From a virus, in the IMG/VR virus record IMGVR_UViG_3300032249_000861, positions 46,026-110,025 of that record: a stretch of 64,000 bases of DNA. One strand, given 5' to 3'. The notes beneath the pieces are model-generated. The model had not been told where the DNA came from. It saw only the letters and a program-made list of their open reading frames with translations, and searched no databases. The position numbers and the translations under genes are program-made. Shown piece by piece: positions 1 to 62,589 of this stretch; positions within the stretch are counted from its first letter, which is position 1; the number at the start of each line of letters is the position of its first letter.

Positions 1-320
1 GGTTTTGGAGCAAAAGGAGCTACTGTACTTCCCAAGCCAAGAGATTTTGAAGTTCCTCAAGGTTTTGATATAACTCAACAGGGTTCTGATAGAAGACAAG
101 TACTAATTCCCAGCCAAGGTAGTACAGCATTTGTTGCAGATAAAACAGAAGACCAGACAGCAAAATATAGACAAGCTGGATATGATGTTAAGAACATAGA
201 ACGAACCGGTGGTATTAGTGGCACAATGGTTAGAGATTTAATTATAGCTGGAGATATGGCTAAACTTCAATCAGTATTGTCTCCTGGCGTATATGATCTT
301 GTCTCGAATAACATAGGAAG
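1..320 (+). other. C-terminal part of a HIGH-class nucleotidyltransferase-like domain (NadM/NadD/CoaD-like) within the giant protein
   Basis: ERTGGISGTMVRDLIIAGD...LQSVLSPGVYDLV resembles the 'ISGT/ISST-x-I/VR...G...LVP..V' tail of NMNAT/PPAT enzymes. The HIGH motif would lie upstream, outside the window. Confidence 0.5.
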
Positions 321-18962: not shown

Positions 18963-21900
18963 ATGGCAAATAAACTGGTAAAAGTTTTTGATAATATAGG
19001 ATTTAATTTTCAAATCATTAATGGGAAGATTAGTCCTATAAAAACCCTAGTTGGATTTAATGGGTTAAATCAAAAACATGTAGGTTATTATATACCGTAT
19101 ATATGTCGTAATAAAAAACTAAACTTATTAGAGATTGGTATAGGAGATGTTCAAAACGACGATTCTGGTAACGTAATTATTAATAAGCATAAAATAGTAG
19201 TATCCTCAAATAATAATAATGCTGTTAATTTTGAAAATGATAGTAATAATGAATTTTTTGTTTTTGCCAATCAGAATATTTTTAATAGTAGCATTAGTAA
19301 TGTTGTTGTAATAGACTCTAATACCTTTATAGACAATGTCTCTGCTATTTATCTAGCAGATTGCTCGAACCAATCAGTATCGGTCACATTACCAGAAATA
19401 TCTCAAGCAGAAAACTTGGTACTAGAATTTAAGAACATTTCACCTAATCATGATTTAATTATTAGAGATAGTAAGGGTGGTTCAGTAACTATACTAGATG
19501 GTCAAAAAAGTTATTCTAAACTAGTTACCACCAATGACCAATGGATATCTTTAGATAACAATAATAGTACAGAATATCTAAATACTCAATCATCAGAACC
19601 AATACTATCTGCTCAAAGTTCTCCTGTTGGCGATGATTTCTCACTACAATATAAACAAGGCAGTAATTTTGCTGACTCTAATATGTACTGGGATTCAGTC
19701 AATAACGATTTATTATTAGGCGCAGACAATAGTACTGATGCTTACTCAGTCATTCCAACATCTGGTAATAGACCTCTATATATTAATCAGAAAAAGTTAA
19801 ATAGTGATTTAGTTGTTTATGGTAGTGGTAATAGGAATCTATTCTTTTCTTATGATGGTAGATTAGGTCTGAATATTCCATCAGGATCTAGACCATCTAC
19901 CATATTTCATATTGTAAATACTGTGTGTCAAGAAGGTTTCAGACTAGAAAATCGTAATGCTTGTCATCCAGCAGACATTACTTTATTTCATAAGCCCAAC
20001 TCAGCTATTGTTAATGGATCTATCATATCTCAAATTAATTTAGCTGGTAAGAATACTAGTGGAAATAAAACAGATTACGGAAGCATAGAGGCTTTGGCAA
20101 TTAATACGACAGCAAATCTTGAAGAAGGAGGATTGCAGTTTAAGATTGCTGCTGCGTCTACTGGAGTAAAAGTTTTTGACAGTAATTATTCAGCCACAAC
20201 GGTAGGCTATAGTGGTAATAGTCTAACTATTAATCGTACAGGATCAACAGTATTACAAAATAACAACACCTCTGTTACTTTGTCTTCTAGTAGTGTGAAT
20301 ATAAGCGGATCAGCAGTAACACTAAATACATCTAATTTAGTTCTTGGTGGTGCGGGATCTTCTGTTAGTGTTCCTGGTGCAATTGCCGCTGGACCAATAT
20401 CAGCAACCTCATTACAGTCAAATACTATAATTGCTCCAAATATTGGTAGCGGCAGTTTTATTACAACCAACGGAGATAATAGGCTTGTCGGCAGTACCAC
20501 AATGTCTGTTAATTCTTTGGGTACTCTTAATTTACCCATTACGCCAAACAAACTATTACAAACAACAACAAACGGTGCCATAACTGGTATATATTCTACA
20601 GATGATTATTTCAGAACAGATGGAGATATTGTTTGGAATAAGTACACGCAGAGACTAGCATCAGCCTGTTTAAAACAAATAACATTCGTTAACCCCGTAT
20701 CTGTGGATGAATATAGTGTTGGGGATCAGTTAGCAATTGTATCATCTTCATCTACTTTTTACAGAAGAATTGCGGATGTTTATGTTGAGAATAATGCTAT
20801 CACAGGACTACTAGTTGATCAGGATGTTTCTCCTACAGATATTGATGGAATAACAGTGTACTCTGTTACCAAAGGAGGATATCTTGATATACAAGTGTCT
20901 ACCGAAGAAGGAGTAATATCTGATTCTACAAAAAATGTTATTAGCGCTAGACCAGGAACAAGTACGCTATTTAATACTCTACAAAAAGATATAGATTTTT
21001 CAGTATACGGCATAGACTCTACCCCAGCATTAAAGATTAAAGCTAACTCTGGTAAAATCAGCATAATTTCTGGTATGTATCGCGCCTTTTCTCCAAAGCA
21101 TGAATTGCCAGCATTTCCAATTGTTGTAACTACTGGTGGTGTCGGTATATCTAATTTATATTCTTCAGCTAATTTTAATTATAGTAATACCCAAAATTTA
21201 TTTTCTGGCATAGTATCTGATGTTGGGTCTAATGGACTACCTTCTCATTACGGAACATATGATCAAAATGGTAATGCTTCGGAATGGATAGAAAAACCAG
21301 GAATGTTAGAAAGTAGAGATAAAGAAGAATTTGTTGCTGGTGGTTCTTATTCTACATCAAATGCTATTGAAGGGAAAGTCCTAAAACATGTAGAAACATT
21401 AATCAGAGCAACTGGATACTCTTACGTCGGCTTTAGAGTAGCATCTCTTTATAACACAACAGATCCCACTAACATATCAGCACCAGACAAATTATCAATG
21501 AGCTTTGTTGGCGTTGTTGATCCTCAGAATACTGAAGATGTTTCTACAACCTATATCCGAAGTACTACCGGTGGTATTGAACAATTTAATTCAATAGTTA
21601 TAAATAATCTGGGCGTTGTCGATAGTATGTACAGGATTGGAAAGTATGAAGTAACAAATAAACAATATTGTCAATTCTTAAATGTTGTTGCTAAGAATAA
21701 CGATAGAAGATTATATGATTCTAAAATGGGTAGTGATGCTGTTGGGGGTATTGATCGTATATTTGATGCTGAATACATATATATTGTTAAACCTAATATG
21801 GATAATAAGCCAGCAGTATTTGTAAGTTATTTAAGTGCTATTAGATTTATTAATTGGCTTCATAATGGAGCTGCTACAAGTATAATTGAATCAAATATTG

Positions 21901-22493
21901 ATTATACTCTAGATATTGGTGCTTATACAATTATACCCATTGGTACAGATTCTTATAATGTTGTCCAGTCTTCTTATAGAAAATATTGGCTACCCAACCT
22001 TAATGAGTGGCATAAGGCAGCTTATTTTGAACCAGTAGATGTTAATGCTTATGCTGGTACGTCAACAGTTATGGTTAAGAGAGATGATCCTTATCTTGTT
22101 GGTTCTGGTGTTGATACAGATACCAAAAAATTTAAGGAGCTATTTGCTAATCTAAGCATTAGTGGATGGTTGTATGTTGACCATTTAATAGTTGGAGATG
22201 GAACAATACGGTCATCTAAAAAATTTACCGGCTTAGTCCCTCCGACTGGTAATCCTGCTACTACCCAAGGCGAAGACACGACAACACAGTCTACTGGTGG
22301 TATCAGGTTGCCACCTACCTCATTAGATGATATTATTAATAAAGACAATAATGCTGCAGAATCAACATCTGCAACAACATCTGTTGGAACAAGTATACCT
22401 GGCATTCCGTTAAGAAGAGTTCAAGATACTGATTGTGCTGAAAATCCACCTTGGTTCTGTAATCCTAACAATACTGGTCCAAGCTTATTTTAG
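18963..22493 (+). CDS. Putative tail fibre / receptor-binding protein with circularly permuted FGE(SUMF1)-type lectin domain
   Basis: 1176 aa, Ser/Thr/Asn/Gly-rich beta-type fibre segments. FGE-sulfatase motifs YGTYDQNGNASEW, GGSY, VGFRVAS precede YRIGKYEVTN, FINWLHNG, WLPNLNEWHKAAY (~21170-22030). Confidence 0.65.
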   Translation: MANKLVKVFDNIGFNFQIINGKISPIKTLVGFNGLNQKHVGYYIPYICRNKKLNLLEIGIGDVQNDDSGNVIINKHKIVVSSNNNNAVNFENDSNNEFFVFANQNIFNSSISNVVVIDSNTFIDNVSAIYLADCSNQSVSVTLPEISQAENLVLEFKNISPNHDLIIRDSKGGSVTILDGQKSYSKLVTTNDQWISLDNNNSTEYLNTQSSEPILSAQSSPVGDDFSLQYKQGSNFADSNMYWDSVNNDLLLGADNSTDAYSVIPTSGNRPLYINQKKLNSDLVVYGSGNRNLFFSYDGRLGLNIPSGSRPSTIFHIVNTVCQEGFRLENRNACHPADITLFHKPNSAIVNGSIISQINLAGKNTSGNKTDYGSIEALAINTTANLEEGGLQFKIAAASTGVKVFDSNYSATTVGYSGNSLTINRTGSTVLQNNNTSVTLSSSSVNISGSAVTLNTSNLVLGGAGSSVSVPGAIAAGPISATSLQSNTIIAPNIGSGSFITTNGDNRLVGSTTMSVNSLGTLNLPITPNKLLQTTTNGAITGIYSTDDYFRTDGDIVWNKYTQRLASACLKQITFVNPVSVDEYSVGDQLAIVSSSSTFYRRIADVYVENNAITGLLVDQDVSPTDIDGITVYSVTKGGYLDIQVSTEEGVISDSTKNVISARPGTSTLFNTLQKDIDFSVYGIDSTPALKIKANSGKISIISGMYRAFSPKHELPAFPIVVTTGGVGISNLYSSANFNYSNTQNLFSGIVSDVGSNGLPSHYGTYDQNGNASEWIEKPGMLESRDKEEFVAGGSYSTSNAIEGKVLKHVETLIRATGYSYVGFRVASLYNTTDPTNISAPDKLSMSFVGVVDPQNTEDVSTTYIRSTTGGIEQFNSIVINNLGVVDSMYRIGKYEVTNKQYCQFLNVVAKNNDRRLYDSKMGSDAVGGIDRIFDAEYIYIVKPNMDNKPAVFVSYLSAIRFINWLHNGAATSIIESNIDYTLDIGAYTIIPIGTDSYNVVQSSYRKYWLPNLNEWHKAAYFEPVDVNAYAGTSTVMVKRDDPYLVGSGVDTDTKKFKELFANLSISGWLYVDHLIVGDGTIRSSKKFTGLVPPTGNPATTQGEDTTTQSTGGIRLPPTSLDDIINKDNNAAESTSATTSVGTSIPGIPLRRVQDTDCAENPPWFCNPNNTGPSLF

Positions 22494-22512
22494 AAAGCAT
22501 TAAGGAATAATT

Positions 22513-24996: not shown

Positions 24997-25562
24997 GCCT
25001 TCTACTATTTAAAAGAGACGAAACAGGATTCGGTCATCCATCACCAGAACAGTTATCTGTCGGAGAAATTGTTATCAATAGCGTCACAGGCAAACTATAT
25101 ACTAAGTTAGTAGATGGTTCTGTTATAGAGTTTATAGGACAAAAAATTTGTTTTGATCCTCTTCCAGAAATATTTACACTGTATGAAAATTCATTAATAT
25201 CCAATGATATTGTTACTAATTTTTGTTGTACTGGTGCTTTATTAGAATTTGAGGTTAAAAAACTAAAGTTAGAACCAACACCGTATTCTTTTAGATTTAT
25301 AGAACTAACGAATAATGCTGACCCGCAAGATATAACAATCCAAGCCCCTAAATTTTCTATATACGAAGAGATTACCCCTGCAACACCACCGAGTACAACA
25401 GTGACTACTCTAACATACAGAAAAGCTATTGTTCCAATTAACTTAGCTATAAATCTAAGCACTCAAGGGATTAGTTTGTTTAAGTTTGGTGTTATAGGAG
25501 ATCCTAGTAGACCACCAATATTAGAAAAAATTGTAACCATCAGATGTCAAGAATCAATATAG
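24993..25562 (+). CDS. Small fibre-associated protein with Mtd-N-like / tail-fibre N-terminal motif
   Basis: Start reassigned to ATG 24993 (ATGA overlap with the previous stop, AGGAG ~24978). LLFKRDETG...PSPEQLSVGEIVINSVTGKLYTK matches the common 'xKR...P....L..GE..IN...GKLY' fibre N-terminal motif. Confidence 0.55.
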   Translation: MSLLLFKRDETGFGHPSPEQLSVGEIVINSVTGKLYTKLVDGSVIEFIGQKICFDPLPEIFTLYENSLISNDIVTNFCCTGALLEFEVKKLKLEPTPYSFRFIELTNNADPQDITIQAPKFSIYEEITPATPPSTTVTTLTYRKAIVPINLAINLSTQGISLFKFGVIGDPSRPPILEKIVTIRCQESI

Positions 25563-25572
25563 GACAACCTTT

Positions 25573-26460
25573 ATGATAAATACTATTAATCACAGTCTAG
25601 AAGAAGGTGAAGCTGGATTACTACTTCGTTTTAATGTTGATTTAGCACAGCTCAAAAAGAGAGACCAGTATATCGTTCAGTTTGATTCTCCTGTTTCGTT
25701 GCCATATGATCCTCCTGTTACTCTGTCTTTCACACCAGACCCACCATCCTATTCGATTATAAATAGTGGCGGAATTATTCCACAAATTTTTGTTAAAATC
25801 AAATCTCTTCACAGAGCAGAAACTAAAACTTTACTAAGATTAACTATTAAAGACGTATATAATAATATTTTATATATTGACTATTTGTTAATAGTTTGTT
25901 CACCACAGTCCACACTAAAATTTGACGCATCACTATTACCGTCAAATATTGCTGGTAATATCGGAGATAATGGCGGTAGTAGAATTAAATTATCTCAACC
26001 AAATACCATTAGATTAGATAAGGGAATGTCAGTTAAAGGTCCTGGTCTATCTGATAGTATATCATATACTATTAGAACCATAGAAACTAATGACACTATT
26101 GAATTAGATAAATTAATACCAACATTTGATAATAGAACAATAACTGGAACATTTATTTTTACTAGAATTACAGGATGTGTCGATCCTGGCTTACTATCTC
26201 TAAGATCGTCTCAGCCAGTATATACGATTTTAGATTTTAGTAATAATTGGACATACGAAATTGGTAATAGAATTATTGCTCAGTTTATTGTAGAGAATAA
26301 AAACGATAATCTAGATACTCTCGTATTATTGCCAATTAAAAATGCTTCTTTGTTAAATAATTCTGACAACTCGGCTTCAATACCAAGCATCTCTGTAATT
26401 AAAGGTGCGGGTAGAGTTATAGGCGATTCTCAGTGTTTATCCGAACTAGTTTTTAGTTAA
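25573..26460 (+). CDS. Hypothetical virion/tail protein (beta-rich)
   Basis: 295 aa ORF, SD-like AGGA upstream, within the structural operon. No recognised family. Confidence 0.6.
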   Translation: MINTINHSLEEGEAGLLLRFNVDLAQLKKRDQYIVQFDSPVSLPYDPPVTLSFTPDPPSYSIINSGGIIPQIFVKIKSLHRAETKTLLRLTIKDVYNNILYIDYLLIVCSPQSTLKFDASLLPSNIAGNIGDNGGSRIKLSQPNTIRLDKGMSVKGPGLSDSISYTIRTIETNDTIELDKLIPTFDNRTITGTFIFTRITGCVDPGLLSLRSSQPVYTILDFSNNWTYEIGNRIIAQFIVENKNDNLDTLVLLPIKNASLLNNSDNSASIPSISVIKGAGRVIGDSQCLSELVFS

Positions 26461-26519
26461 TTGATAAAATAATAGCATGGTGTAATTAATTATGAGTTTC
26501 CATATTTTGAGTAAATAAT

Positions 26520-27719
26520 ATGATTATAAATAGCCAGTTTTTTATTACATACTACATAGGCACAGAGCCACTTCCGCTCAAAACCGTACCACCATCACTA
26601 CCTATCAATAGTGTTGGTCGCATAGAATACGACACTTTCATACAAGCCATAGACACAATTTACGGCAGTCAAACTCTGGATGGTTCGATTCCAAAATTCT
26701 GGACTAGAAGAACCCAGTCCGTTGATCGATTAGGAAATATCAGATATTTTTATGAACCACACCCTGATTCTACATTATCTCAATTAGATAGTAAGTCTTC
26801 TTATTATTTTATTATTAGAGATACTACAGAAATTCCACTTAGAGTTCCTTCTGTTGGTGGATTATTATTAGGGTTTACAGATGCTAATAAATTACCAAAT
26901 GTTCTACCAAGCAGCATACCAAACACAGGACTGTCTACCGATAGTAAATATGCTTTCTCTCCAAAGATCGAAAATTTACAACCTTACGAACAATACAGAT
27001 ACGAATTTAAAACAGTTAACTCTAATTGGCCAGTAAGTATTAGCTCCATATCTGGCATAATTAAACCATCAACCGACAGAGCTTCTATAGAGAGCAGTAT
27101 CGGTTTCTGTCCCAGTACTGGAAATTGTGATACTAATATCATGCCTTTTACACTACCAGAAGAATGTACCTTATCTGGTTCTGATAATAAAACAATTACT
27201 ATGCAGTTGTCAATAATGCCAGTATCTTACAATGGTATGGAAGTATTGAGTAATCAGTTTACAATTGAGTGTAAAGACTGTTTGCCAAAACCTTCCATAG
27301 TCATTTCTGGAAAATCTTCTCCTCTTGTAGTAGAACCCACAGGAGATGATGCAGAGCCTGCGTCTTATTCCTTTGAGTTGCTTACCAAAAATTTAGAATT
27401 AGATAAAAGCTATTCCTATAATATTGAAGTATTGAGATCAGAGTGGCCATTCCTATTTACTACTCCGACATCTGGTAATATAATAATTAAATCTTCAACA
27501 GACAAGCCTTCACTAGATGGTAAAATATTTTTCTGTCCAACAACTGGGCTATGTCCACCAAATATTAATGGTGTTGGTAGCTACTCTGTTCCATCATATC
27601 CAAAATTCTTAACCGGAGCAGCGTCCTATAATGTTACTCTAAGAGCCGTATTAAATTCTGCTGAGTGCGATACAGAAACCATATATAGTTTACCTATCAC
27701 CATATCATATAAAAATTAA
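26520..27719 (+). CDS. Hypothetical structural protein with 2 Cys-rich 'WP/FC/CxxC' repeats
   Basis: 399 aa. YRYEF...NWPV...SG...FCPSTGNC...CKDCLP and YSYNI...EWPF...SG...FCPTTGLCP. Confidence 0.7.
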   Translation: MIINSQFFITYYIGTEPLPLKTVPPSLPINSVGRIEYDTFIQAIDTIYGSQTLDGSIPKFWTRRTQSVDRLGNIRYFYEPHPDSTLSQLDSKSSYYFIIRDTTEIPLRVPSVGGLLLGFTDANKLPNVLPSSIPNTGLSTDSKYAFSPKIENLQPYEQYRYEFKTVNSNWPVSISSISGIIKPSTDRASIESSIGFCPSTGNCDTNIMPFTLPEECTLSGSDNKTITMQLSIMPVSYNGMEVLSNQFTIECKDCLPKPSIVISGKSSPLVVEPTGDDAEPASYSFELLTKNLELDKSYSYNIEVLRSEWPFLFTTPTSGNIIIKSSTDKPSLDGKIFFCPTTGLCPPNINGVGSYSVPSYPKFLTGAASYNVTLRAVLNSAECDTETIYSLPITISYKN

Positions 27720-27722
27720 ACC

Positions 27723-29915
27723 ATGAATACAGAACAACCATCTTCACAAACTAACTTTGTATCTTTAGCTGATACAACAGAACCAACAAAAGGCCATATC
27801 CAAGATCTATCTGCATCGGTTAAAGGATTAATAAAAAGATTAGAATATAAATATGAAATAGAGGGATTGGGAGCAAATTGGCCATTGGCCATAGTGCCTA
27901 TTTCTGGTACGTTTATTGCCGCTTCAAGAACAGCAGAGATCAAAGTTAAAGCAGTTTTCTGTCCGAGTATTGCTTTGTGTCCTTCTGGCAGTCCTGATGT
28001 TTTAGACTATAGTTCTAATTATAGCTATGGTATTGATAAAACAAAAAATCTACTATTTTCTACAGTTAGAGCTAAAGTGTCTGAAGTAAATTCTAATAGT
28101 GATTTTCTATATAGCGAACCAGTCACACTCTCTTGTTCAAATTGCTTACCTCAAGTTGGTCCGAGAGTTATATTACCGGATACTATGATATTAAATACTG
28201 GCACCAAAAATACTATTACCGTTAGTGGTGTTGCTAGTGGTATCTCTCCTGATATTAGATACTCTTACATATTTAAAGTACTAGATTCTACATGGCCTGT
28301 TGATCTGTATCCTATAAGCGGCACTGCCCAGAGCAATACCAATGAGCTTAAGCTATTTACTCAACTAGTATTTTGTAAAACTTCCGGACTATACGATTCT
28401 GGTATGTGTAGCGATTCAGATAAAAGAGCTACTGTTAGTTTAGAGCTATTGCCGTTGTCAGATGATTTTGAAACAGTGTCTATACTAGCTGTCAACGATA
28501 CTGAAAAATTAGTCAGTAATAATAGTCTAATACATTGTAATAATTGTTTACCCTCAAATCCAAAAATTACTCTACCAGAAACCCTAACATTGAATAGCAG
28601 TACTAAAAATACTATCGCTATTACTGGAACAATAAGTGGAATATCTCCCTACACAAGATACTCTTACGTGTTTAAAACACTAGATACTACTTGGCCAATT
28701 GAACTATATCCCATAAGTGGTACAGCATATACTAATGGTGAAGAGTGTAAAGTTTCCACCCAGGTGGTATTCTGTAAAAATTCTGGATCATATGATTCTG
28801 ATGCTTGCGGTACTATTAAAAGCAAAAGAGCTACTATTAATTTAGAGGTAAGCTCTTTAAATAATGCTATTAAATTAATAAGTAACGATAGTCTAATTTC
28901 ATGTGATAATTGTATATCTTATCCTAAGGTTACTTTACCAGATATTGTCTTATTAGATGATAAAACCCAAAATATCATTACTGTTAGTGGTGTTGCTAGT
29001 GGTATATCCCCAGATATTCGTTACTCATATAGATATAAGGTACTAGATGCCACATGGCCAGTTTCTCTTTATCCTTTGAGCGGAACTATTAAAAGTGCTA
29101 CCGAAGTAGTATCAATACCAAGTCAGTTAGTATTTTGTGAAACATCAGGGAATTACCAAACTGACATGTGTGGCACTCCTAAAGAGAAGAGAGCAACACT
29201 AAGTCTGGAACTAACGCCACTAGCATCAGATACTGAAACAGTATCAATTCTGTCTATTAATAATAGTAAGATTATCAGCAACGACATGATTGCAGAATGT
29301 GACGGTTGTATACTATATCCCAACGTTTCCCTAGTCGCATTATCTTCAAATACCAAAGCTGTTACCTCTGGAGTCATTCCTAATAGCGGAGTAAATCCGG
29401 CTGTGTCAGGATCAGGAGTATCAGCACTTGGAGATTTACAGCAGATGAGTTCTTCTGTACCGACTGTAGGTATAACAACCTCTTCTACCAGTGTCCTACC
29501 AATAAGTACAAATAAGGCTAATAGAATAAATATTGCTGCTTCTATTCAAAATGTAAAAATTAATCGTACCTATAATTATAGTTTAGAAAATATTGACTCT
29601 AATTGGCCGTTGTATGTAGGTTCTATATCTGGTCAAATTACCCCTGTTTCTAGTACCACCACACTAAATTTTGTTGGAGAGTTTTGTCCAGCTCCGTCGG
29701 TATGTCCATCTGGATCATCTGCTGTAATACCATATTCTACAGTTATTAGTCATACTAACTCTTATACATCATCATCATTTAGACTTAAGCTGGTTGACCC
29801 GATCATTACAGGCTCTTATTATAGTAATAACATTAGGGTCTACTGTAGTGACTGCTCTCAGAATTTTGCCCCAACTGTGGTGTCGTCTCAGGTTTCGGAA
29901 AACCCCTCTTGTTAA
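27723..29915 (+). CDS. Hypothetical structural protein with 5 Cys-rich 'WP/FC/CxxC' repeats
   Basis: 730 aa. Five units (NWPL, TWPV, TWPI, TWPV, NWPL), each ending in CxxC (CSNC, CNNC, CDNC, CDGC, CSDC). Confidence 0.75.
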   Translation: MNTEQPSSQTNFVSLADTTEPTKGHIQDLSASVKGLIKRLEYKYEIEGLGANWPLAIVPISGTFIAASRTAEIKVKAVFCPSIALCPSGSPDVLDYSSNYSYGIDKTKNLLFSTVRAKVSEVNSNSDFLYSEPVTLSCSNCLPQVGPRVILPDTMILNTGTKNTITVSGVASGISPDIRYSYIFKVLDSTWPVDLYPISGTAQSNTNELKLFTQLVFCKTSGLYDSGMCSDSDKRATVSLELLPLSDDFETVSILAVNDTEKLVSNNSLIHCNNCLPSNPKITLPETLTLNSSTKNTIAITGTISGISPYTRYSYVFKTLDTTWPIELYPISGTAYTNGEECKVSTQVVFCKNSGSYDSDACGTIKSKRATINLEVSSLNNAIKLISNDSLISCDNCISYPKVTLPDIVLLDDKTQNIITVSGVASGISPDIRYSYRYKVLDATWPVSLYPLSGTIKSATEVVSIPSQLVFCETSGNYQTDMCGTPKEKRATLSLELTPLASDTETVSILSINNSKIISNDMIAECDGCILYPNVSLVALSSNTKAVTSGVIPNSGVNPAVSGSGVSALGDLQQMSSSVPTVGITTSSTSVLPISTNKANRINIAASIQNVKINRTYNYSLENIDSNWPLYVGSISGQITPVSSTTTLNFVGEFCPAPSVCPSGSSAVIPYSTVISHTNSYTSSSFRLKLVDPIITGSYYSNNIRVYCSDCSQNFAPTVVSSQVSENPSC

Positions 29916-29933
29916 ATAAATAAGGTATATATA

Positions 29934-32249
29934 ATGTCAAATGTTAAAAGCATAGGAATTAAAGTTAGTGGCTTAAGTCCACTAGAAACATATAATTATC
30001 AATTTTCTAATAAGGGCGGAAACTGGCCTGTAAGAGTATCTCCAATTTCTGGAATATTCAAGCCTAATTCTCTAGATAATGTATATGAAATTAGATCCTA
30101 TGTAGAATTTTGTCCCACCACAGGCTTATGTCCAGCAACAGACCCAAATGTTCTGTACAATGCCCCGCCAGTGGACGTTAATTCTGGTGCGTCTGTTGAT
30201 AGAACAGCATTATATTCTGTGGTAGGGTTGTCTGTTACTTCTCACACAACATCAGAAAATGTTTTAGAAAATCAAACACTAGTACAATGCGATAACTGTT
30301 TGCCAAACATTACTCTAGCTACTGAAGAAACTATATTATTGAATGATTCTTCATTAAATACCAAACAAATAGCTACTTCTGTTAATGGCTTAATTCCAAA
30401 TCAAATATATAACTATGAATTTTCTGCTATTGATAGTAATTGGCCAATAAGAATATCTCCTAGAACAGGATCTATAAGATCAGCATCTGATTCTGCAACT
30501 ATTAGATCCTTAATAACAGTATGTAATAGTGCTGATGATTGTGTAAATTCACTGGAATATAATCCTACTCAAAATTGTGATATCGGACAAAATCCTTTTG
30601 CTGCCATTAAATTAACGATAACTCCAGAAGGGGGTTATCAGTCTCCAGTATCTTCTGATTTTACTGTTGTTTGCGAAGATTGTATTCCAAAATTATCTCT
30701 AGTATTACCATCAACAATACAATTAGATAGAATATCAAAAAATAAAACTTCTATGAATATGGTAGCATCTAATTTAAAAATTGGAAAACAATATGTATAT
30801 AAGATTAATAGTGTAGATGCTAATTGGCCAGCAATTGTTACCCCAATGAGTGGGAAATTAACAGCACACTATGATCGTATGGATATTCCAGTTAAAGTTA
30901 CTCTTTGTTCTTCCACAGGACTATGTCCATCAAATAATCAAGACGTTATAGATTATAGTATAGATGATACTTGTTTATTAAATTATTCTAATCTAGATAG
31001 ATTTGTCAGGTTTAATGCGGATATTTCCGCAGATAATTGTGTGGAGTCATTAGATAGAGTTTATAGTAATGATGTCCTTATTAGCTGCGTAGACTGCTTA
31101 CCAAAAGTCAAAGTCTACATCCCTAATACTACATTATTATCTTCAGACTCTACTACAAATGTAACTATTTTTAATGCTGACTTAACTGATCTTACGCCCA
31201 GACAACAATATGAGTACAAATTTAAATCAGTAGATGGCAATTGGCCTATCTTAATATCTCCAATAAGTGGAACAATAGTATCAGACAGTACTAGTGCAAG
31301 CATATCATCAAGACTAACATTTTGCAGATCAACTGGATTGTGTGATGGGGTAGATAATTTACTAGATTATACATATGATACTAGTAGCTTATACACAGAG
31401 GGACTAGAAAGATATGGATCTATAGTTTTAGAAGTTAATCCAACGGATTGTTTCGATATGTCTAAGAGTACTAGCAATACTATGTTGGTTAGATGCGACA
31501 ATTGTCTGCCAAACCCGACCTTGACCCATCAAACCAATTCATCAACATTATCTGTGCCAGGAGTCAGTCGCTATCAGCTCTCAACGTCTGCACAAAATTT
31601 GATTGTTGGTGAAACATATAGGTACAATATCAATTATATAGACAGCAACTGGCCAACCATAGTATCAAAACAATCTGGACAATTCGTTGCTGTTGCTGCT
31701 AATAAAAACATAACAACAGAACTACAGTTTTGTTTTCCTAGCGGAACCTGTTCGCAAAATCCAATAGACGTGATGCCATATAGAGTAAGTCCGATTACCA
31801 GCAACACAAATAAATATGCAATTATTAATTTATCTATAACAGATATTACTAGCAATAATACTCCTGTTATTAGTGATGATTTTTCTCTAACTTGTTCTAA
31901 TTGCTTACCAGACATTAATTACACTATAGCCTTCTCTGGTAGCCCAACTCTAGTATTACCAAGCAACTGCTGTTCTGGTAATCAGGTTATGAGAGTTAAT
32001 ATTGGTGGTGCTGTGCCTGGAGATATACACAATTATGTATTATCTTCATCAACACCGAACGTGTCTTTTATGCCATCAACTGGTCAGATCGTCTTTAAGC
32101 AAGGGGGGTCTGGAACAATTATTAGTATGATGAGCACAGCACTAAGTGACCAAACATCAGCTATAGCACAATGCAAGCTGACTAATATTAGTTCAAACAT
32201 AGAAGCTGTTGACTTTTTGGTTATAAAATGTGGATCCAGTGCTTGCTAA
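29934..32249 (+). CDS. Hypothetical structural protein with 5 full and 1 degenerate Cys-rich 'WP/FC/CxxC' repeats
   Basis: 771 aa. NWPV, NWPI, NWPA, NWPI, NWPT units ending CDNC, CEDC, CVDC, CDNC, CSNC. Confidence 0.75.
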   Translation: MSNVKSIGIKVSGLSPLETYNYQFSNKGGNWPVRVSPISGIFKPNSLDNVYEIRSYVEFCPTTGLCPATDPNVLYNAPPVDVNSGASVDRTALYSVVGLSVTSHTTSENVLENQTLVQCDNCLPNITLATEETILLNDSSLNTKQIATSVNGLIPNQIYNYEFSAIDSNWPIRISPRTGSIRSASDSATIRSLITVCNSADDCVNSLEYNPTQNCDIGQNPFAAIKLTITPEGGYQSPVSSDFTVVCEDCIPKLSLVLPSTIQLDRISKNKTSMNMVASNLKIGKQYVYKINSVDANWPAIVTPMSGKLTAHYDRMDIPVKVTLCSSTGLCPSNNQDVIDYSIDDTCLLNYSNLDRFVRFNADISADNCVESLDRVYSNDVLISCVDCLPKVKVYIPNTTLLSSDSTTNVTIFNADLTDLTPRQQYEYKFKSVDGNWPILISPISGTIVSDSTSASISSRLTFCRSTGLCDGVDNLLDYTYDTSSLYTEGLERYGSIVLEVNPTDCFDMSKSTSNTMLVRCDNCLPNPTLTHQTNSSTLSVPGVSRYQLSTSAQNLIVGETYRYNINYIDSNWPTIVSKQSGQFVAVAANKNITTELQFCFPSGTCSQNPIDVMPYRVSPITSNTNKYAIINLSITDITSNNTPVISDDFSLTCSNCLPDINYTIAFSGSPTLVLPSNCCSGNQVMRVNIGGAVPGDIHNYVLSSSTPNVSFMPSTGQIVFKQGGSGTIISMMSTALSDQTSAIAQCKLTNISSNIEAVDFLVIKCGSSAC

Positions 32250-32274
32250 ATCTAAGATATAAGAGGATTTGATA

Positions 32275-35200
32275 ATGCTAGATATTATAGGACTAAATAC
32301 TGCCAACTATAAAAATTGTGTAGAGTGGAGATATTTACCTGGAGACTTAACAACCGTTGGCTATAATGGTGGTCCTAGTTCATATTATACTTATGATCAG
32401 TCTGGTAATGTATGGGAATGGACAGATAGTTTAGATACTATTACATACAATAATACTGATTATTATTATCGAAAAATCCGTGGCGGGTCTTTTAAAGAGA
32501 GTGCTCAAAAATTAAGTTCATTATATAATCATAGTAGATATGTTAGTGATCAACCAGATTCTGATAATGGTCTGGTTCTGAAAGATGATGTAGGCTTTAG
32601 GGTTGTATCAAGAACTAATCCCTTGTCTCTTTCTTATTTTGTAACTGTTTCTGATCCTGGTAATCAGCCTTTAGTTTTAACCGAAGACTATGCTGGATCA
32701 TATGGTTCTGTTGATTATGAATATGCAATTAGTCAATTAGAAATTACTAATGATGATTATGTGATGTTTTTAAATGCTGTTGACCCAAATGGCTCTAGAA
32801 CCCAATTGTCTCCAACATCTAATACTTATGGTCAGCCAACAGCCAACAATCAGAATATTCTATATCATTTTTATATGTCGTCTGATCCTAGAGGTGGGAT
32901 TGACTTTAATCCTGGAGAAGCTGTAGGTAGAAAATATTTTTCCAAAAATAATACTGGAAATAAACCCGTTAATTTTATTACATGGTATATGGCAGCTAGT
33001 TATTGTAACTGGCTACACAATAAAGTCTCGGATCCAAATACTACAACCACCAATAGTGGAGCATATAATTTATCTTTGGACGACAACTTAATAGTACGTG
33101 ATCCAAATAGTTATTATAGTTTACCTTCGGATGATGAGTGGTTTAAAGCAGCTTATTATAAGGGAGGGTCCGCCGATGCAGGATACTGGACATATGCAAC
33201 AGGTTCCGATGATGCTCCATCGTGTATTGATATTGATGAAAATGGAATAGGTCCATGGCAAAAATCACAAGATTATGTTAATATATCCTTAAAAAATCTC
33301 AATATTGGACACTCCTATACTGTCTCATTCTCCGTCTCTAAGAACTCTCTATATTCAGTAGAATTAGACAAAAGCGAATATACATTCATAGCTTCTGCTA
33401 TAACAGAAAATGTTTTAATATGTGTTACTAAGTATTTGGTAGTTGATTTTTGTATAGTAACATCAACATTATTTAATAATACAACAAATACTATTGAATC
33501 TGTAGAACCAACAGTCATACAATGTTCTTCAAGAAATGTTTGCAAACTAACTAGAACTCCTACTCCAACAAAAACTGTTACTCCAACACCAGCAGCAAGT
33601 CAGAGTCCTACTCCAACAACAACTCCTACTCCTACGATAACTCCAACAATAACACCAACAATCACAGTTACCTCAACTGCTACTCCAACAGTAACCAGAA
33701 CAGCAACGCAGACCCCGTCTCTTACAGCTTCTGAAACTGCTACTCCGACAGCCACAAGAACATCCACTCCAACACCCACGCCTACAATTACTGTAACAAG
33801 AACAGTTACCCCGTCTATTACTGCCACAGCTTCATTAACTCCAACTATAACAGTAACAAGAAGCGAAACACCTACTCCAACAGTAACCAAAACAACAACA
33901 CCAACACCAGCAGCTAGTCAAACACCAACGCCAACCGTTACTCCAACAATAACAGCATCTAGAACGCCAACCGCTACAGTTACTCCAACAATCACCATTA
34001 CTCCTAGTATTACTATAACCAGAAGCTCAACTCCAACGCCAACAGTTACTCGAACAAGTACTGCTACTCCTACGGTAACACCATCGGTAACGACCTCATT
34101 AACTCCGACTATAACAGTAACTAGCACAAATACAAGAACACCAACACCAACAAGAACAACAACACCAACAGTTACTCCAACATTGACCCCTACTCCATCA
34201 AGACCTTTTGCTTTTGTCAGCACATGGAATACATTAAGTACTAGCACTGGTAGTAGTGGGTCTAATCAAATTAGACTACCATTAATATTAGGAGGAACTT
34301 ATAATTTTACTGTTAATTGGGGAGATGGAACTAGTAATAATATAACTTCTTGGAACCAAACCGAGACAACTCATACATATACTAGTACTGGTAGTAAAAC
34401 TATAACTATTACTGGAACTATCAAAGGATGGGAATTTAATAATAGTGGAGATAGATTAAAGATTACTAATATTAGTAATTGGGGTCCGGTAGATCTGCAT
34501 GTGGCTGGCAGTTCCAGAAACTTTAGTGGTTGTGCTAATTTAAATATTACTACTGGAGGATCTCCAGGTATGCCAGTTCTTTGTACTGGCATGTTTGAGG
34601 GTTGTAGTGCTCTTGTTGGAGTTGGTATTAACGATTTTAATATGGCGAATGTAATCAATACTTCATATATGTTCTCTTCTTGTCCATTCTTTAACGCTCC
34701 AATTAATAATTGGAATACTAGTAACATAACCAATATGAGTGGCATGTTCTTTGGAGCTACTAGCTTTAATCAGCAAATAGGAACTTGGAATACTAGTAAG
34801 GTTACTAATATGAGCAGCATGTTTAATGGGGCTGCAAGTTTTAATCAGCCATTAAATACTTGGAATACTTCAGCAGTTACTAATATGAGTAGTATGTTTG
34901 CCAATACGGGCCAGTATAATCAAAGCATGAGTAGTTGGGACACCAGTAAGGTTACTAATATGAGTAGCATGTTTTTAAACGCTCTTGCTATGGACCAGGA
35001 CATTAGCATGTGGAATATATCTTTGGTAACGTCTATGGATGTAATCTTAAGAGGTGCAGTTAAGTTTAGTCAAACCAATTACCATGCTTTACTTAATTCT
35101 TGGGGTAATGGTACTACACCTACTCAAAATAACATTAATTTTACTGTTGATCAAGAATATTCCTCAACAAATGCTACAATAGTAAGCAGAAGACTATATT

Positions 35201-36060
35201 TAATAAATAATAGGGGTTGGAATATTATTGATCATGGTAATGAAACTAGTATGATATTAAAATATAATAATACTAACGATAGTAGATATAATGTTAATAG
35301 TGGTTGGTATAGCACTAATGAATTCTTTACTATACTTAGGCCAACAGCAAACGATACCATAGTAGAAGTTAACTGGGGAAATGGACAAAATTTTGTATAT
35401 AATATAGGCAACAACGTATTAGCAGGAGTCTATGCTCCTGCTTATTCTACAAATACTACATATACTATTAGAATAACAAAAAGAAGTGGGTCTGGAAATA
35501 TTCGACTGTCTCCTTTTCAATTTTATAATTATGGCGCTAGTTACGGTAACCCACAGTATTATACTCCATTTCAAAATAGCGTAACTTCCATAGATAGATT
35601 TGGAAGTAACATCATCCTTAGCGATAACGGAAGTCATTTTGCTTATTATTACAATCTTGTTTCGGTGTCAAATATAGATGCGCCAATCAATCCACCAGAC
35701 AATTCCTATCGTAATATCTTTCTTGGTTGTTCAAAGTTTGTTGGAACTGGTTTGAACAATTGGAATACTAGCTCTATAACTGATATGTATGCTGCATTTC
35801 AGAATAATACTAGTTTCACTTTTGATTTGAGAAACTGGAATTTATCTAATGTTGCAAATATGGATTATATGCTAACTGGCGCTAATAATTTTGGTACGAC
35901 AAACTATAGTAATCTGTTAATATATTTAAATGATAATAATATTAAAAGTAATGTTCCTTTAAGAAGTAGTTCTAGATATTTTAACCAAGCCAGCGTAATT
36001 TCTGCTAGAGCTAGTTTAGTATCAAGAGGATGGACTATTATAGATAGCGGAGCAATATAA
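32275..36060 (+). CDS. Putative receptor-binding/adhesin protein: permuted FGE-type lectin + Thr/Pro stalk + PKD-like + DUF285/BspA-like repeats
   Basis: Start reassigned to ATG 32275 (GAGGA at 32263-32267). YDQSGNVWEW/RGGSF/VGFRVV precede FVTVSDPGN/LEITN/NWLHN/LPSDDEWFKAAYY. TPT stalk 33548-34200, YNFTVNWGDG, WNTSxVTNMSSMF repeats. Confidence 0.75.
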   Translation: MLDIIGLNTANYKNCVEWRYLPGDLTTVGYNGGPSSYYTYDQSGNVWEWTDSLDTITYNNTDYYYRKIRGGSFKESAQKLSSLYNHSRYVSDQPDSDNGLVLKDDVGFRVVSRTNPLSLSYFVTVSDPGNQPLVLTEDYAGSYGSVDYEYAISQLEITNDDYVMFLNAVDPNGSRTQLSPTSNTYGQPTANNQNILYHFYMSSDPRGGIDFNPGEAVGRKYFSKNNTGNKPVNFITWYMAASYCNWLHNKVSDPNTTTTNSGAYNLSLDDNLIVRDPNSYYSLPSDDEWFKAAYYKGGSADAGYWTYATGSDDAPSCIDIDENGIGPWQKSQDYVNISLKNLNIGHSYTVSFSVSKNSLYSVELDKSEYTFIASAITENVLICVTKYLVVDFCIVTSTLFNNTTNTIESVEPTVIQCSSRNVCKLTRTPTPTKTVTPTPAASQSPTPTTTPTPTITPTITPTITVTSTATPTVTRTATQTPSLTASETATPTATRTSTPTPTPTITVTRTVTPSITATASLTPTITVTRSETPTPTVTKTTTPTPAASQTPTPTVTPTITASRTPTATVTPTITITPSITITRSSTPTPTVTRTSTATPTVTPSVTTSLTPTITVTSTNTRTPTPTRTTTPTVTPTLTPTPSRPFAFVSTWNTLSTSTGSSGSNQIRLPLILGGTYNFTVNWGDGTSNNITSWNQTETTHTYTSTGSKTITITGTIKGWEFNNSGDRLKITNISNWGPVDLHVAGSSRNFSGCANLNITTGGSPGMPVLCTGMFEGCSALVGVGINDFNMANVINTSYMFSSCPFFNAPINNWNTSNITNMSGMFFGATSFNQQIGTWNTSKVTNMSSMFNGAASFNQPLNTWNTSAVTNMSSMFANTGQYNQSMSSWDTSKVTNMSSMFLNALAMDQDISMWNISLVTSMDVILRGAVKFSQTNYHALLNSWGNGTTPTQNNINFTVDQEYSSTNATIVSRRLYLINNRGWNIIDHGNETSMILKYNNTNDSRYNVNSGWYSTNEFFTILRPTANDTIVEVNWGNGQNFVYNIGNNVLAGVYAPAYSTNTTYTIRITKRSGSGNIRLSPFQFYNYGASYGNPQYYTPFQNSVTSIDRFGSNIILSDNGSHFAYYYNLVSVSNIDAPINPPDNSYRNIFLGCSKFVGTGLNNWNTSSITDMYAAFQNNTSFTFDLRNWNLSNVANMDYMLTGANNFGTTNYSNLLIYLNDNNIKSNVPLRSSSRYFNQASVISARASLVSRGWTIIDSGAI
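33548..34200 (+). repeat. Thr/Pro-rich low-complexity (TPTxT) coding repeat, ~215 aa mucin-like stalk
   Basis: Degenerate actccaaca-type repeats encoding TPTPTKTVTPTPAASQSPTPT... Confidence 0.95.
34630..35050 (+). repeat. 75-nt (25-aa) tandem DUF285/BspA-like repeats
   Basis: tggaatactagt...aatatgag units at 34711, 34786, 34861, 34936 encoding WNTSxVTNMSSMF..A.SFNQ. Further copies at ~35740-35880. Confidence 0.9.
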
Positions 36061-36506
36061 TGAAACTAATTAATAATACTAATAAACACATATACTATTA
36101 TATCTCACAAGACCAAAGTTATGGATTCTTGAATTTTGGACAACAACTAGAAACAAACAGAAATGTTGTTTCTTTTTTATCGGCTGAAGAATGGAAAAAT
36201 CATATTAATACTACACTAGGAACAGACACTTGGCTGAACGAAAATTTAAAAAAGGAACTAGAAGAGCAAAGTAAAGATACAGCAAAACATAGCGATGTTG
36301 GATATTTAACAGCTTACAACTTTAGACTACCAGTAAATGAAGAAACCGATTCTAAGCTTAATCAACTATTATCGTCCAACACAGATCCTGTGAGAATAAC
36401 TGCTATGTCGGGTGACGTTTATACTTTAAGCAAAGATAATCTAGTATCTTTAATTGATCAATATACAAAAGACAAACCCTTATATCTAGCTATGGTAGAG
36501 AAATAA
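36060..36506 (+). CDS. Hypothetical protein, possibly tail-fibre assembly/chaperone-like
   Basis: 148 aa, TAATG overlap with the upstream fibre gene. The C-terminal GYLT...VRITAMSGDVYTLSKDNLVSLIDQY loosely resembles DUF4376-type fibre accessory proteins. Confidence 0.45.
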   Translation: MKLINNTNKHIYYYISQDQSYGFLNFGQQLETNRNVVSFLSAEEWKNHINTTLGTDTWLNENLKKELEEQSKDTAKHSDVGYLTAYNFRLPVNEETDSKLNQLLSSNTDPVRITAMSGDVYTLSKDNLVSLIDQYTKDKPLYLAMVEK

Positions 36507-36507
36507 T

Positions 36508-38010
36508 ATGTTATTAACTTGCAATAGTGCTAATTACGGAAGCAGAGCAGACTGGAATACGTTAGATGGTAATGTATCAACAGTTGGTTCTAATGGCAAA
36601 AGTAGTTACTATGGCACTTTTGATCAAACGGGAAATGTTAATGAGCTATTAGACACTATTAGCGGTAGTTATCCTATGATTCGCGGAGGTTCTTTTAATA
36701 ATGAACAGACATATCTAACCAAAACATATTTTGGTACGCAAGCAGTAGACGGTAAGACTAGTAATATCGGATTTAGGGTGGCTAAAGCATCTTCAAGCAT
36801 AGATGCTACTAATTATGTTTTAGTTGAAAATAAAGATAACGGTGGAGATGGTGGTGGTGTTTTTAGTCCTGGTAGAGTCAATTATGACTATCAAATAAAA
36901 AAATATTTAGTAACTAATAATGAGTATGTAGAATTTTTAAATGCAGTCTCTACTAAGCCTAATACTCTTGGATTATGGGATATTAATATGACCGACCCTG
37001 TAAATCCTCCAGCCGGATGGATAAGAACAAGAGGTGGTATAAATCGTGCTCTGATTAGCGGATCATATGTCTACACTGTTTCTCCAAACATGGGTAACAA
37101 ACCCGTAAATTATATCAACTGGTTTTCTGCTGTTAGATATATTAATTGGTTGCATAATGGTAAACCAACTGGCGCTCCAGCAGCTAGTACTACAGAGGAT
37201 GGAGTCTATACGTTACCCGGTTCTGTTATTCAAGGGACCAGCAAACCATCACCGAATAATAAAAATTCATACTGGCTTCCTTCGGAGGACGAATGGTATA
37301 AAGCCGCATACTACGATCCTAATAAAAACGGACTTGGTTTACCAGGATACTGGACTTATGCAACAATGTCTGATTCTATTCCTGATGCTGTTGTTGTTGA
37401 TGCGACAGGAACAGCAAATAATACACATAGTAATCCTAATATTTGTATTAGTCCCACACCAACTCCAACAGTTACTCCATCTATTACGGTGTCTCCAACA
37501 GTGACTCCTAGTATAACAGTGTCAGTATCTGCAACACTTACAGCCACTCCTACAACAACACCAACAATTACTATTACATCTAGTGCTACTCCTACTAAAA
37601 CACCGACTAAAACTCCAACCATGACTCGTAGCTTAACTCCGACTCCAAGCTTAACCGCTAGTGTTAGTCCTAGTGTTACTGTCTCAATATCTCCAACAAA
37701 AACCCCAACAATGACCAAAACACTAACTCCAACAGTTACTCCTACTGCTAGCGTAACTGTCACTCCTTCAAAGAGTTTGTGTGCGCAGAAGAAATTAGGA
37801 GAATTATTGTATCAGAGTTCTGTTTATGTAAATGACGATATTAAGATACTGCATAAAGGATTTTTATTACAGGGTAAATTATTGCCTAATATAAGTGTTT
37901 TATACGAAGTTCCAGAACCACCCTCAACAACCAGCACAACACCAAATCCAACAAGAACGCCCACACAGACTCCAAGTTTGTCGCCGTCGCCTACGCCTAC
38001 TGGTACTTAG
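36508..38010 (+). CDS. Putative receptor-binding protein: permuted FGE-type lectin domain + Thr/Pro stalk
   Basis: 500 aa. SANY...TVGSNGKSSYYGTFDQTGNVNE, RGGSF, IGFRVAK, then YQIKKYLVTNNEYVEFLNAV, PVNYINWFSAVRYINWLHNG, WLPSEDEWYKAAYY. PT tracts 37450-37770 and 37920-38007. Confidence 0.75.
   Translation: MLLTCNSANYGSRADWNTLDGNVSTVGSNGKSSYYGTFDQTGNVNELLDTISGSYPMIRGGSFNNEQTYLTKTYFGTQAVDGKTSNIGFRVAKASSSIDATNYVLVENKDNGGDGGGVFSPGRVNYDYQIKKYLVTNNEYVEFLNAVSTKPNTLGLWDINMTDPVNPPAGWIRTRGGINRALISGSYVYTVSPNMGNKPVNYINWFSAVRYINWLHNGKPTGAPAASTTEDGVYTLPGSVIQGTSKPSPNNKNSYWLPSEDEWYKAAYYDPNKNGLGLPGYWTYATMSDSIPDAVVVDATGTANNTHSNPNICISPTPTPTVTPSITVSPTVTPSITVSVSATLTATPTTTPTITITSSATPTKTPTKTPTMTRSLTPTPSLTASVSPSVTVSISPTKTPTMTKTLTPTVTPTASVTVTPSKSLCAQKKLGELLYQSSVYVNDDIKILHKGFLLQGKLLPNISVLYEVPEPPSTTSTTPNPTRTPTQTPSLSPSPTPTGT
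37450..37770 (+). repeat. Thr/Pro/Ser-rich low-complexity coding repeat
   Basis: SPTPTPTVTPSITVSPTVTPS... Confidence 0.9.
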
Positions 38011-46457: not shown

Positions 46458-46460
46458 TCA

Positions 46461-62552: not shown

Positions 62553-62589
62553 AAAAATAGACAGGGGCCTGCTCATCACAGACCCCCGC
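62553..62589 (-). terminator. GC-rich hairpin with short U-tract after ssb (intrinsic terminator-like or attenuator)
   Basis: Minus strand GCGGGGGTCTG-TGATGAG-CAGGCCCCTGT-CTATTTTT-ATG: an 11-bp stem with G:U pairs and a 7-nt loop, abutting the GT4 start. Confidence 0.6.

Follow-up and report, generated by a model that had tools for sequence, protein, structure and literature searches.

The stretch of DNA analyzed here, hereafter the window, comprises the final 64 kb (64,000 nucleotides) of the IMG/VR record IMGVR_UViG_3300032249_000861, a linear viral record of 110,025 bp that is 73% complete (CheckV), and window coordinates correspond to genome coordinates minus 46025. Three of its genes, P0001, P0002, and P0003, encode proteins carrying a C-type lectin (CLec) domain of the formylglycine-generating enzyme (FGE) type, in which the two halves of the domain are found in swapped order, while a fourth protein of this kind is encoded upstream of the window. 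Throughout, half A denotes the canonical N-terminal half of the domain and half B the canonical C-terminal half, with a canonical domain reading A-B and those described here B-A. The features are given below, together with the halves as delimited by half-specific hidden Markov models (HMMs) and the stretches matched to the Pfam profile PF03781 (FGE-sulfatase; cut-off, 23.3 bits) in a six-frame HMM search over the whole 110-kb record.

18963-22493, + strand: P0001, 1176 residues, with one internal FGE/CLec unit of permuted half order (PF03781, 41.3 bits, two stretches)
21165-21443, + strand: P0001 half B (ANF..VGSNG..YGTYDQNGN..EW..GGS..GFRV), residues 735-827; 21186-21443 matches profile positions 156-254
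21501-22028, + strand: P0001 half A (FVGV..YEVTN..NWLHN..LPNLNEWHKAAY), residues 847-1022; 21624-22034 matches profile positions 35-126
32269-36060, + strand: P0002, 1263 residues, with a unit of permuted half order at the N-terminus, a Pro/Thr-rich linker, and a PARCEL/DUF285 C-terminal region (PF03781, 62.7 bits; PF03382 DUF285, 215 bits)
32299-32607, + strand: P0002 half B, residues 11-113; 32374-32607 matches profile positions 173-254
32635-33159, + strand: P0002 half A, residues 123-297; 32716-33213 matches profile positions 35-140
36508-38010, + strand: P0003, 500 residues, with a unit of permuted half order at the N-terminus, a Pro/Thr-rich linker, a small conserved module, and a Pro/Thr-rich tail (PF03781, 55.6 bits)
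36526-36783, + strand: P0003 half B, residues 7-92; 36565-36786 matches profile positions 162-255
36811-37314, + strand: P0003 half A, residues 102-269, the domain extending to about residue 297 with GYWTYAT.SD (half-specific HMM, AlphaFold2 model); 36874-37323 matches profile positions 33-127
genome 24714-27215 (L062:14714-17212), upstream of the window: fourth protein, 833 residues, with an FGE/CLec unit of permuted half order followed by Pro/Thr-rich linkers (PF03781, 64.2 bits); genome 24897-25139 matches profile positions 156-254 and 25209-25667 positions 23-131

All four proteins exceed the PF03781 cut-off, with both halves detected separately, and none presents them in colinear order, as profile positions ~156-255 precede positions ~23-140 in every case. 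The search returned exactly eight PF03781 half-matches in the whole record, forming four pairs, and no orphan halves. PHROG 18508, an FGE-like profile, is likewise matched in reverse. The four domains align colinearly with one another over ~290 residues at 35-37% identity, and the motifs ANY, VGxNG.S.YGTYDQ.GN..E, GGS, GFRV, FVxV, VTN, NWLHN, and LP..(D/N)EW.KAAY are invariant or nearly so across the copies. A sequence-only reading of the window had anticipated two partial FGE-sulfatase matches in reversed order for each of the three window proteins, which Pfam bears out in all three and in the fourth copy; the motif order it described at the three places is correct, and its motif coordinates are right to within a few tens of bases.

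The same reversal is found against solved protein chains. A profile built from the four domains aligns its positions 184-294 with residues 64-173 of the 5aoh chain and its positions 40-109 with residues 198-263, half B thus matching the C-terminal parts of solved chains, and it is also reversed against pFGE (1y4j) and TvpA (2y3c). A phmmer search of PDB sequences with the P0003 domain alone gave no match, while the four-sequence profile did. Structure prediction with AlphaFold2 for P0003 residues 1-301, using a 21-sequence alignment of B-A-type proteins, yielded one compact domain (mean pLDDT 78.4, pTM 0.84), and the internal copy of P0001, the most divergent paralogue, gave a pLDDT of 66 and a pTM of 0.75. 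The structural neighbors of the predicted domain are FGE-fold proteins only, and half A can be overlaid on the N-terminal portion of solved structures with this fold. The termini of the canonical CLec fold are adjacent and hence can be bridged by a linker of ~10 residues.

A phmmer search with the P0003 domain identified 6,444 representative proteins at E<=1e-3, including 1,103 at E<=1e-30, and the family is thus not special to this phage. Since canonical tandem arrays also match a B-A query across their junctions, we built separate HMMs for half A and half B and mapped the order of the halves in the top 150 of these homologues. Strictly (BA)n architectures account for 59 of the 150 (25 BA, 28 BABA, and 6 BABABA), and canonical tandem arrays for 65 (56 ABAB and 9 ABABAB). 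In the (BA)n class, the linker from B to A has a median length of 12 residues (range, 7-42) against spacers of ~50-500 residues between successive units, which identifies B-A as the folding unit. In P0002 and P0003, no more than ~10 residues separate the start codon from half B, and behind half A comes a Pro/Thr-rich linker, leaving no space for missing halves.

These data bear on the possibility that the permutation is an artefact, in which the phage units would be remnants of A-B-A-B arrays whose outer halves lie elsewhere, are degenerate, or have been miscalled, and in which the adjoining B and A would come from two incomplete domains. Canonical arrays with the same motifs are indeed abundant, some among the 56 ABAB and 9 ABABAB proteins having equally short B-to-A linkers; they are matched by a B-A query across junctions, and a long unexplained sequence precedes the P0001 unit. 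Against this stand the placement of half B some 10 residues from the initiator of P0002 and P0003 with a Pro/Thr-rich linker behind half A, the mere eight half-matches in the 110-kb record with no orphan half adjoining the units, the 59 strictly (BA)n proteins with their ~50-500-residue spacers, the single compact domain predicted by AlphaFold2 (pTM 0.84 and 0.75), and the grouping of B-A units in a largely separate clade, described below. We therefore regard an artefact as highly improbable and hold with strong confidence that the permutation is real and that the B-A unit is a single domain. The proposal that these domains are circular permutants is accordingly sustained by the PF03781 halves, by the profile comparison with solved chains, and by the (BA)n homologues.

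The evolutionary relationship between both arrangements was addressed with 225 non-identical units (113 BA and 112 AB), re-registered as A+B and placed in a single unrooted FastTree phylogeny. The order of the halves changes six times over this tree, compared with a mean of 75 changes (minimum, 64) with shuffled labels, and one branch with a support of 97 divides 103 AB and 4 BA units from 109 BA and 9 AB units. The AB units that nest with BA units belong to tight arrays, P0013 among them, which fits an origin by duplication and truncation. Under this scheme, the permuted lineage would have arisen from tight ABAB arrays, as are abundant in Planctomycetota and Verrucomicrobiota, by duplication followed by loss of the outer halves, and tandem canonical arrays are the most likely source of the B-A unit.

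In IMG/VR, B-A units were located on large phage contigs, 88-244 kb in length, while other viral contigs carry canonical AB genes. On three of the B-A contigs, a P0002-like protein precedes a close orthologue of P0003. In a complete 152-kb relative, a protein of 3,754 residues (L012:2888-14149) presents five B-A units as beads separated by long spacers, and two neighboring genes have one more each. Among cellular genomes, with each GTDB species represented once, more than 560 loci matched, and the 80 best of them are all AB, ABAB, ABABAB, or fragments, mostly from Planctomycetota and Verrucomicrobiota with some from Myxococcota. Because a B-A query should rank true B-A homologues first, and the best cellular loci are nevertheless canonical, phages are, at the least, strongly enriched for the permuted form, as judged from these best 80 of more than 560 loci. 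A tblastn search of 50,697 GenBank phage records with P0003 returned no match.

Catalytic FGE, a copper oxidase, carries two Cys residues shortly after GGS (C336 and C341 in the human enzyme). No Cys follows GGS in P0001-P0003 or in the fourth copy, and the pattern CxxxxC after GGS is present in none of 162 BA and AB units, so that the missing catalytic pair pointed out from the window copies extends to the family. The absence of this pair therefore points to a binding module instead of an enzyme. Column entropy is highest, in both BA and AB units, in the RGGS-to-GFR stretch and in the stretch preceding RGGS, and the RGGS-to-GFR stretch is completely different among the three window copies.

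In FGE-type CLec targets of diversity-generating retroelements (DGRs) such as TvpA (PDB 2y3c), the stretch equivalent to RGGS-GFR is the variable region. The permuted domains might accordingly be DGR targets, like TvpA or Mtd, with RGGS-to-GFR as their variable region, a possibility favored by this homology, by the stretch being the most variable part of the family, and by a record that is just 73% complete. However, no reverse transcriptase (PF00078/RVT_1) was found in the 110-kb record or in four relatives, of which three are rated 100% complete (one of 244 kb that has terminal repeats, and two others of 197 kb and 152 kb) and one 62% complete. When the four domain regions were compared with the genome by blastn, only weak paralogue matches (<=77 nt, 74%) and no template-like near-repeat emerged. 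Moreover, P0003 differs from its close orthologues (82% and 74% identity) throughout the domain, indels falling in the loops of half A, rather than mainly in RGGS-GFR. The search for a DGR reverse transcriptase and template repeat, suggested along with the sequence-only reading, thus came back empty, and diversification by a retroelement appears very unlikely; the preferred explanation is that the units would have diversified by ordinary paralogy and divergence.

How the units are displayed depends on their position in the protein. In the (BA)n class, the first unit starts within 30 residues of the initiator Met in 38 of 59 proteins, in none at residues 31-70, and beyond residue 70 in the other 21, while the first unit of 25 out of 66 (AB)n proteins begins in that same 31-70 interval, with room for a signal peptide. 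Leaderless N-terminal display is therefore typical of the permuted form. Internal, C-terminal, and repeated units (up to five) are also common among homologues, and the P0001 unit is itself internal (residues 735-1022 of 1176); for P0001 residues 1-730, the ESM Atlas returned only low-score hypothetical viral clusters. The suggestion that permutation frees the C-terminus for a stalk and leaves the lectin at an N-terminal tip is consequently compatible with P0002, P0003, roughly the fourth protein, and 38 of the 59 (BA)n proteins, but not with P0001, the remaining 21, and the internal or C-terminal beads. The regions that follow the units in P0002 and P0003 are the following:

33526-34266, + strand: P0002 Pro/Thr/Ser-rich linker, residues 420-666 (247 residues; composition scan)
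34369-36057, + strand: P0002 C-terminal region with PARCEL/DUF285 repeats, best Pfam stretch at residues 773-879 (Pfam, 215 bits; NCBIfam PARCEL repeat)
37411-37785, + strand: P0003 Pro/Thr/Ser-rich linker, residues 302-426 (composition scan)
37768-37938, + strand: P0003 conserved module of ~45-55 residues (KSLCAQKKLGELLYQ...KGFLLQGKL; orthologue comparison)

The PARCEL/DUF285 repeat is characteristic of Mollicutes and Listeria surface lipoproteins, and the repeats of P0002 could be adhesive themselves. Orthologues of P0003 were found at 82%, 74%, and 53% identity, and its small module, which lies between Pro/Thr-rich stretches, is kept in all four orthologues, down to 53% identity; it has no second copy in the genome and no family match, and is possibly a virion-docking element or anchor. 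Besides, P0003 has a Cys just before NSANY (C5, window 36520-36522) and another at the start of the Pro/Thr-rich linker (C313, 37444-37446; NICISPTPTP), as do 22 further B-A homologue units. A Cys before NSANY is accompanied by a Cys ~40 residues past KAAYY in 23 of 23 units, compared with 52 of 81 units with no N-terminal Cys (Fisher p 3e-4, uncorrected for relatedness), and this pair may form a disulfide that staples the new termini.

The genomic context places P0001-P0003 in a tail module. Genes for a large terminase and a portal are present in the record together with a head-proximal group of fiber-like genes, and the window opens with the end of a giant open reading frame (ORF):

1-18942, + strand: 3' part of a tape-measure-like giant ORF of 7574 residues (genome 42243-64967; ORF map, PHROGs)

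Residues 47-500 of this ORF (L063:12243-16025) match tail length tape measure PHROGs (phrog_28, E 1.6e-26), and over the remaining ~7,000 of its 7,574 residues family matches are all but absent, the exception being a weak tape measure match near the C-terminus. It ends 20 nt upstream of the start of P0001, which is the first gene after the tape measure, and it is followed by a ~35 kb uninterrupted run of large + strand genes in which P0002 and P0003 also lie. A neighboring gene matches minor tail PHROGs and fn3, while most neighboring genes have no match in Pfam or PHROGs. The fourth copy sits in the head-proximal structural block between two fiber-like proteins with an N-terminal Pfam Mtd_N domain (E 1.7e-13 and 2.9e-9), one of which also has two fn3 domains and one Gly_rich_2 domain.

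Other genes of this region deserve mention. Three adjacent paralogous proteins of 399, 730, and 771 residues at window positions 26520-32249 contain internal repeats of ~110-130 residues with weak fn3-like matches (Pur_ac_phosph_N, PhoD_N), and are probably a beaded fiber or baseplate component. At the end of the tail module, window positions 40044-54464 encode two giant proteins of 2137 and 2667 residues with no Pfam match, the former also with no PHROG match. Upstream of the tape-measure region, three tandem paralogues of 417, 409, and 363 residues (40-51% identity; L063:6085-9672, genome 36085-39675) have no PHROG match and may represent triplicated tail tube or sheath-like proteins. In a - strand block beyond the tail module lies a glycosyltransferase (window 60885-62579, - strand; phrog_2170, E 1.9e-30), possibly relevant if the Pro/Thr-rich stalks are glycosylated. 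No tRNA genes were found within the window.

In the model that we favor, the canonical C-terminal half B (ANY...VG.NG..YGTYDQ.GN..EW...RGGS...GFRV) comes first, a linker of ~10 residues would then bridge the old C- and N-termini, and the canonical N-terminal half A (FV.V...YEVTN...NWLHN...LP.EDEWYKAAY) comes last, with the new termini falling in the canonical loop that joins EW.KAA(R/Y)...(Y)PWG to ...ANY. The B-A unit would fold as one compact, non-catalytic binding module, carried on tail-tip or fiber proteins encoded after the tape measure and on one protein of a second fiber cluster, usually with the unit at the very start of the protein and a Pro/Thr-rich stalk behind it. Its predicted role would be the reversible binding of a glycan or protein on the host surface, with a specificity set mainly by RGGS-to-GFR and neighboring loops, and its diversification would proceed without a DGR. 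Because the genes directly follow the tape-measure gene, a putative role in host-surface binding is likely, and we consider a ligand on the host surface somewhat better than an even prospect.

A different ligand can be envisaged for the same putative binding module. The units might dock to the virion, by binding a structural protein or a glycosylated Pro/Thr-rich stalk, or adhere loosely to polysaccharide or particles in the manner of Ig-like decoration domains, leaving true host recognition to C-terminal modules such as the PARCEL/DUF285 repeats of P0002. The N-terminus is the virion-proximal end in most tailed-phage fibers, and 38 of the 59 (BA)n proteins carry their unit at this extreme; the surface-adhesin-type PARCEL repeats at the end of P0002, the position of the fourth copy in a separate head-proximal fiber cluster, and the glycosyltransferase encoded in the window point in the same direction. 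Internal and C-terminal units and arrays of up to five, however, better suit an avidity-type binding of ligand, P0003 has a separate small conserved C-terminal module as a possible anchor, and phage and bacterial relatives of the fold, TvpA and Mtd among them, are ligand-binding heads. We thus see docking or loose adherence as an unlikely, though not negligible, alternative to host-surface binding.

Several observations weigh against the explanation as a whole. Confidence in both AlphaFold2 models is lowest in half B and over the first ~26 residues, and sequential structural aligners mostly matched half A alone, with modest Z scores of 5.5-6.0. The assignment of half B as equivalent to the canonical C-terminal half is a predicted one, drawn from sequence profiles and the high pTM. 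Foldseek retrieved nothing at E<=0.001 from the PDB or the BFVD viral models, a negative that says little because canonical FGE structures also ranked poorly for this model. BA and AB units are imperfectly separated on the tree, so that either the permutation happened more than once or some partial proteins were misclassified, and the cellular survey covers the best 80 of the more than 560 loci described above. Finally, RGGS-GFR is no more variable than the remainder of the domain between P0003 and its 82% and 74% orthologues; three specificities, as proposed from the differences among the window copies and in keeping with the high family entropy of this stretch, are on this account no more than plausible. 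Taking all of this together, we assign a probability of roughly 0.7 to the explanation that combines a circular permutant, a non-enzymatic binding unit, an origin from tandem arrays, and a role at the host surface.

More tentatively, the B-A unit might define a phage-specific adhesin superfamily with thousands of members, in which an adaptive rewiring moves the chain ends to another face of the domain and allows it to be used as in-line or N-terminal heads and beads on Pro/Thr-rich stalks with the variable loops exposed. If so, it would represent a general, DGR-independent means of host-glycan recognition in large freshwater and environmental phages, as well as a natural scaffold for binder engineering. 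In phages and bacteria alike, hypervariable ligand binding is classically built on FGE-type CLec folds; a widespread natural circular permutant shows how far this fold tolerates rewiring, and the tandem-array route of its evolution can be traced with existing sequences. The analysis also provides many candidate receptor-binding modules from large uncultured phages.

The permuted form has practical consequences for annotation. No description of a permuted FGE/CLec domain was found in the searchable literature, where a jumbo-phage review (PMC7824862) mentions the fold and permutations in unrelated contexts only, and NCBIfam holds no model for the unit, returning just a weak partial EgtB match, in agreement with the suggestion of an undescribed form. 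Public annotations of relatives read "formylglycine-generating enzyme". Because the domain is permuted, it surfaces as two partial, out-of-order FGE matches or under misleading names ("formylglycine-generating enzyme", "kinase"), and a dedicated HMM would improve phage annotation.

Among known systems, FGE/SUMF1 (human 1y1e; bacterial 2q17, 6s07, and 6muj) has the catalytic Cys pair and unswapped halves, and the phage copies differ from it in both respects, while pFGE/SUMF2 (1y4j) likewise has its halves unswapped, in contrast to the reversed phage copies. The 5aoh protein ("CarF") and PorK/GldK (9mzu and 9myj) share a non-catalytic FGE fold with the units described here, but are cellular and of canonical order. 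TvpA of Treponema denticola (2y3c) and TaqVP (5vf4) are DGR variable proteins with the FGE-type CLec fold; TvpA has the canonical order and a C-terminal, DGR-diversified variable region, whereas the phage copies have swapped halves and carry the variable stretch within the first third of the domain, with neither a reverse transcriptase nor a template repeat found. Mtd of Bordetella phage BPP-1 is a phage receptor-binding protein with a CLec-fold head, and Mtd_N is present on the two fiber proteins that flank the fourth copy; the permuted-domain proteins themselves have no Mtd_N, and Mtd, unlike them, has a C-terminal CLec domain of a non-FGE subtype, in canonical order and diversified by a DGR.

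A further likeness is to the (AB)n proteins of Planctomycetota, Verrucomicrobiota, and Myxococcota, which share with the B-A units the motifs SANY, YGT(Y/F)DQ.GNV.EW, NWLHNG, and EWYKAAYY, and, like them, lack the catalytic Cys and often occur in multiple copies with short inter-domain linkers. Unlike the B-A units, they are chromosomal and keep the canonical order, and the permuted unit probably evolved from them. Set beside these systems, the biology described here extends a known theme rather than establishing a new principle.

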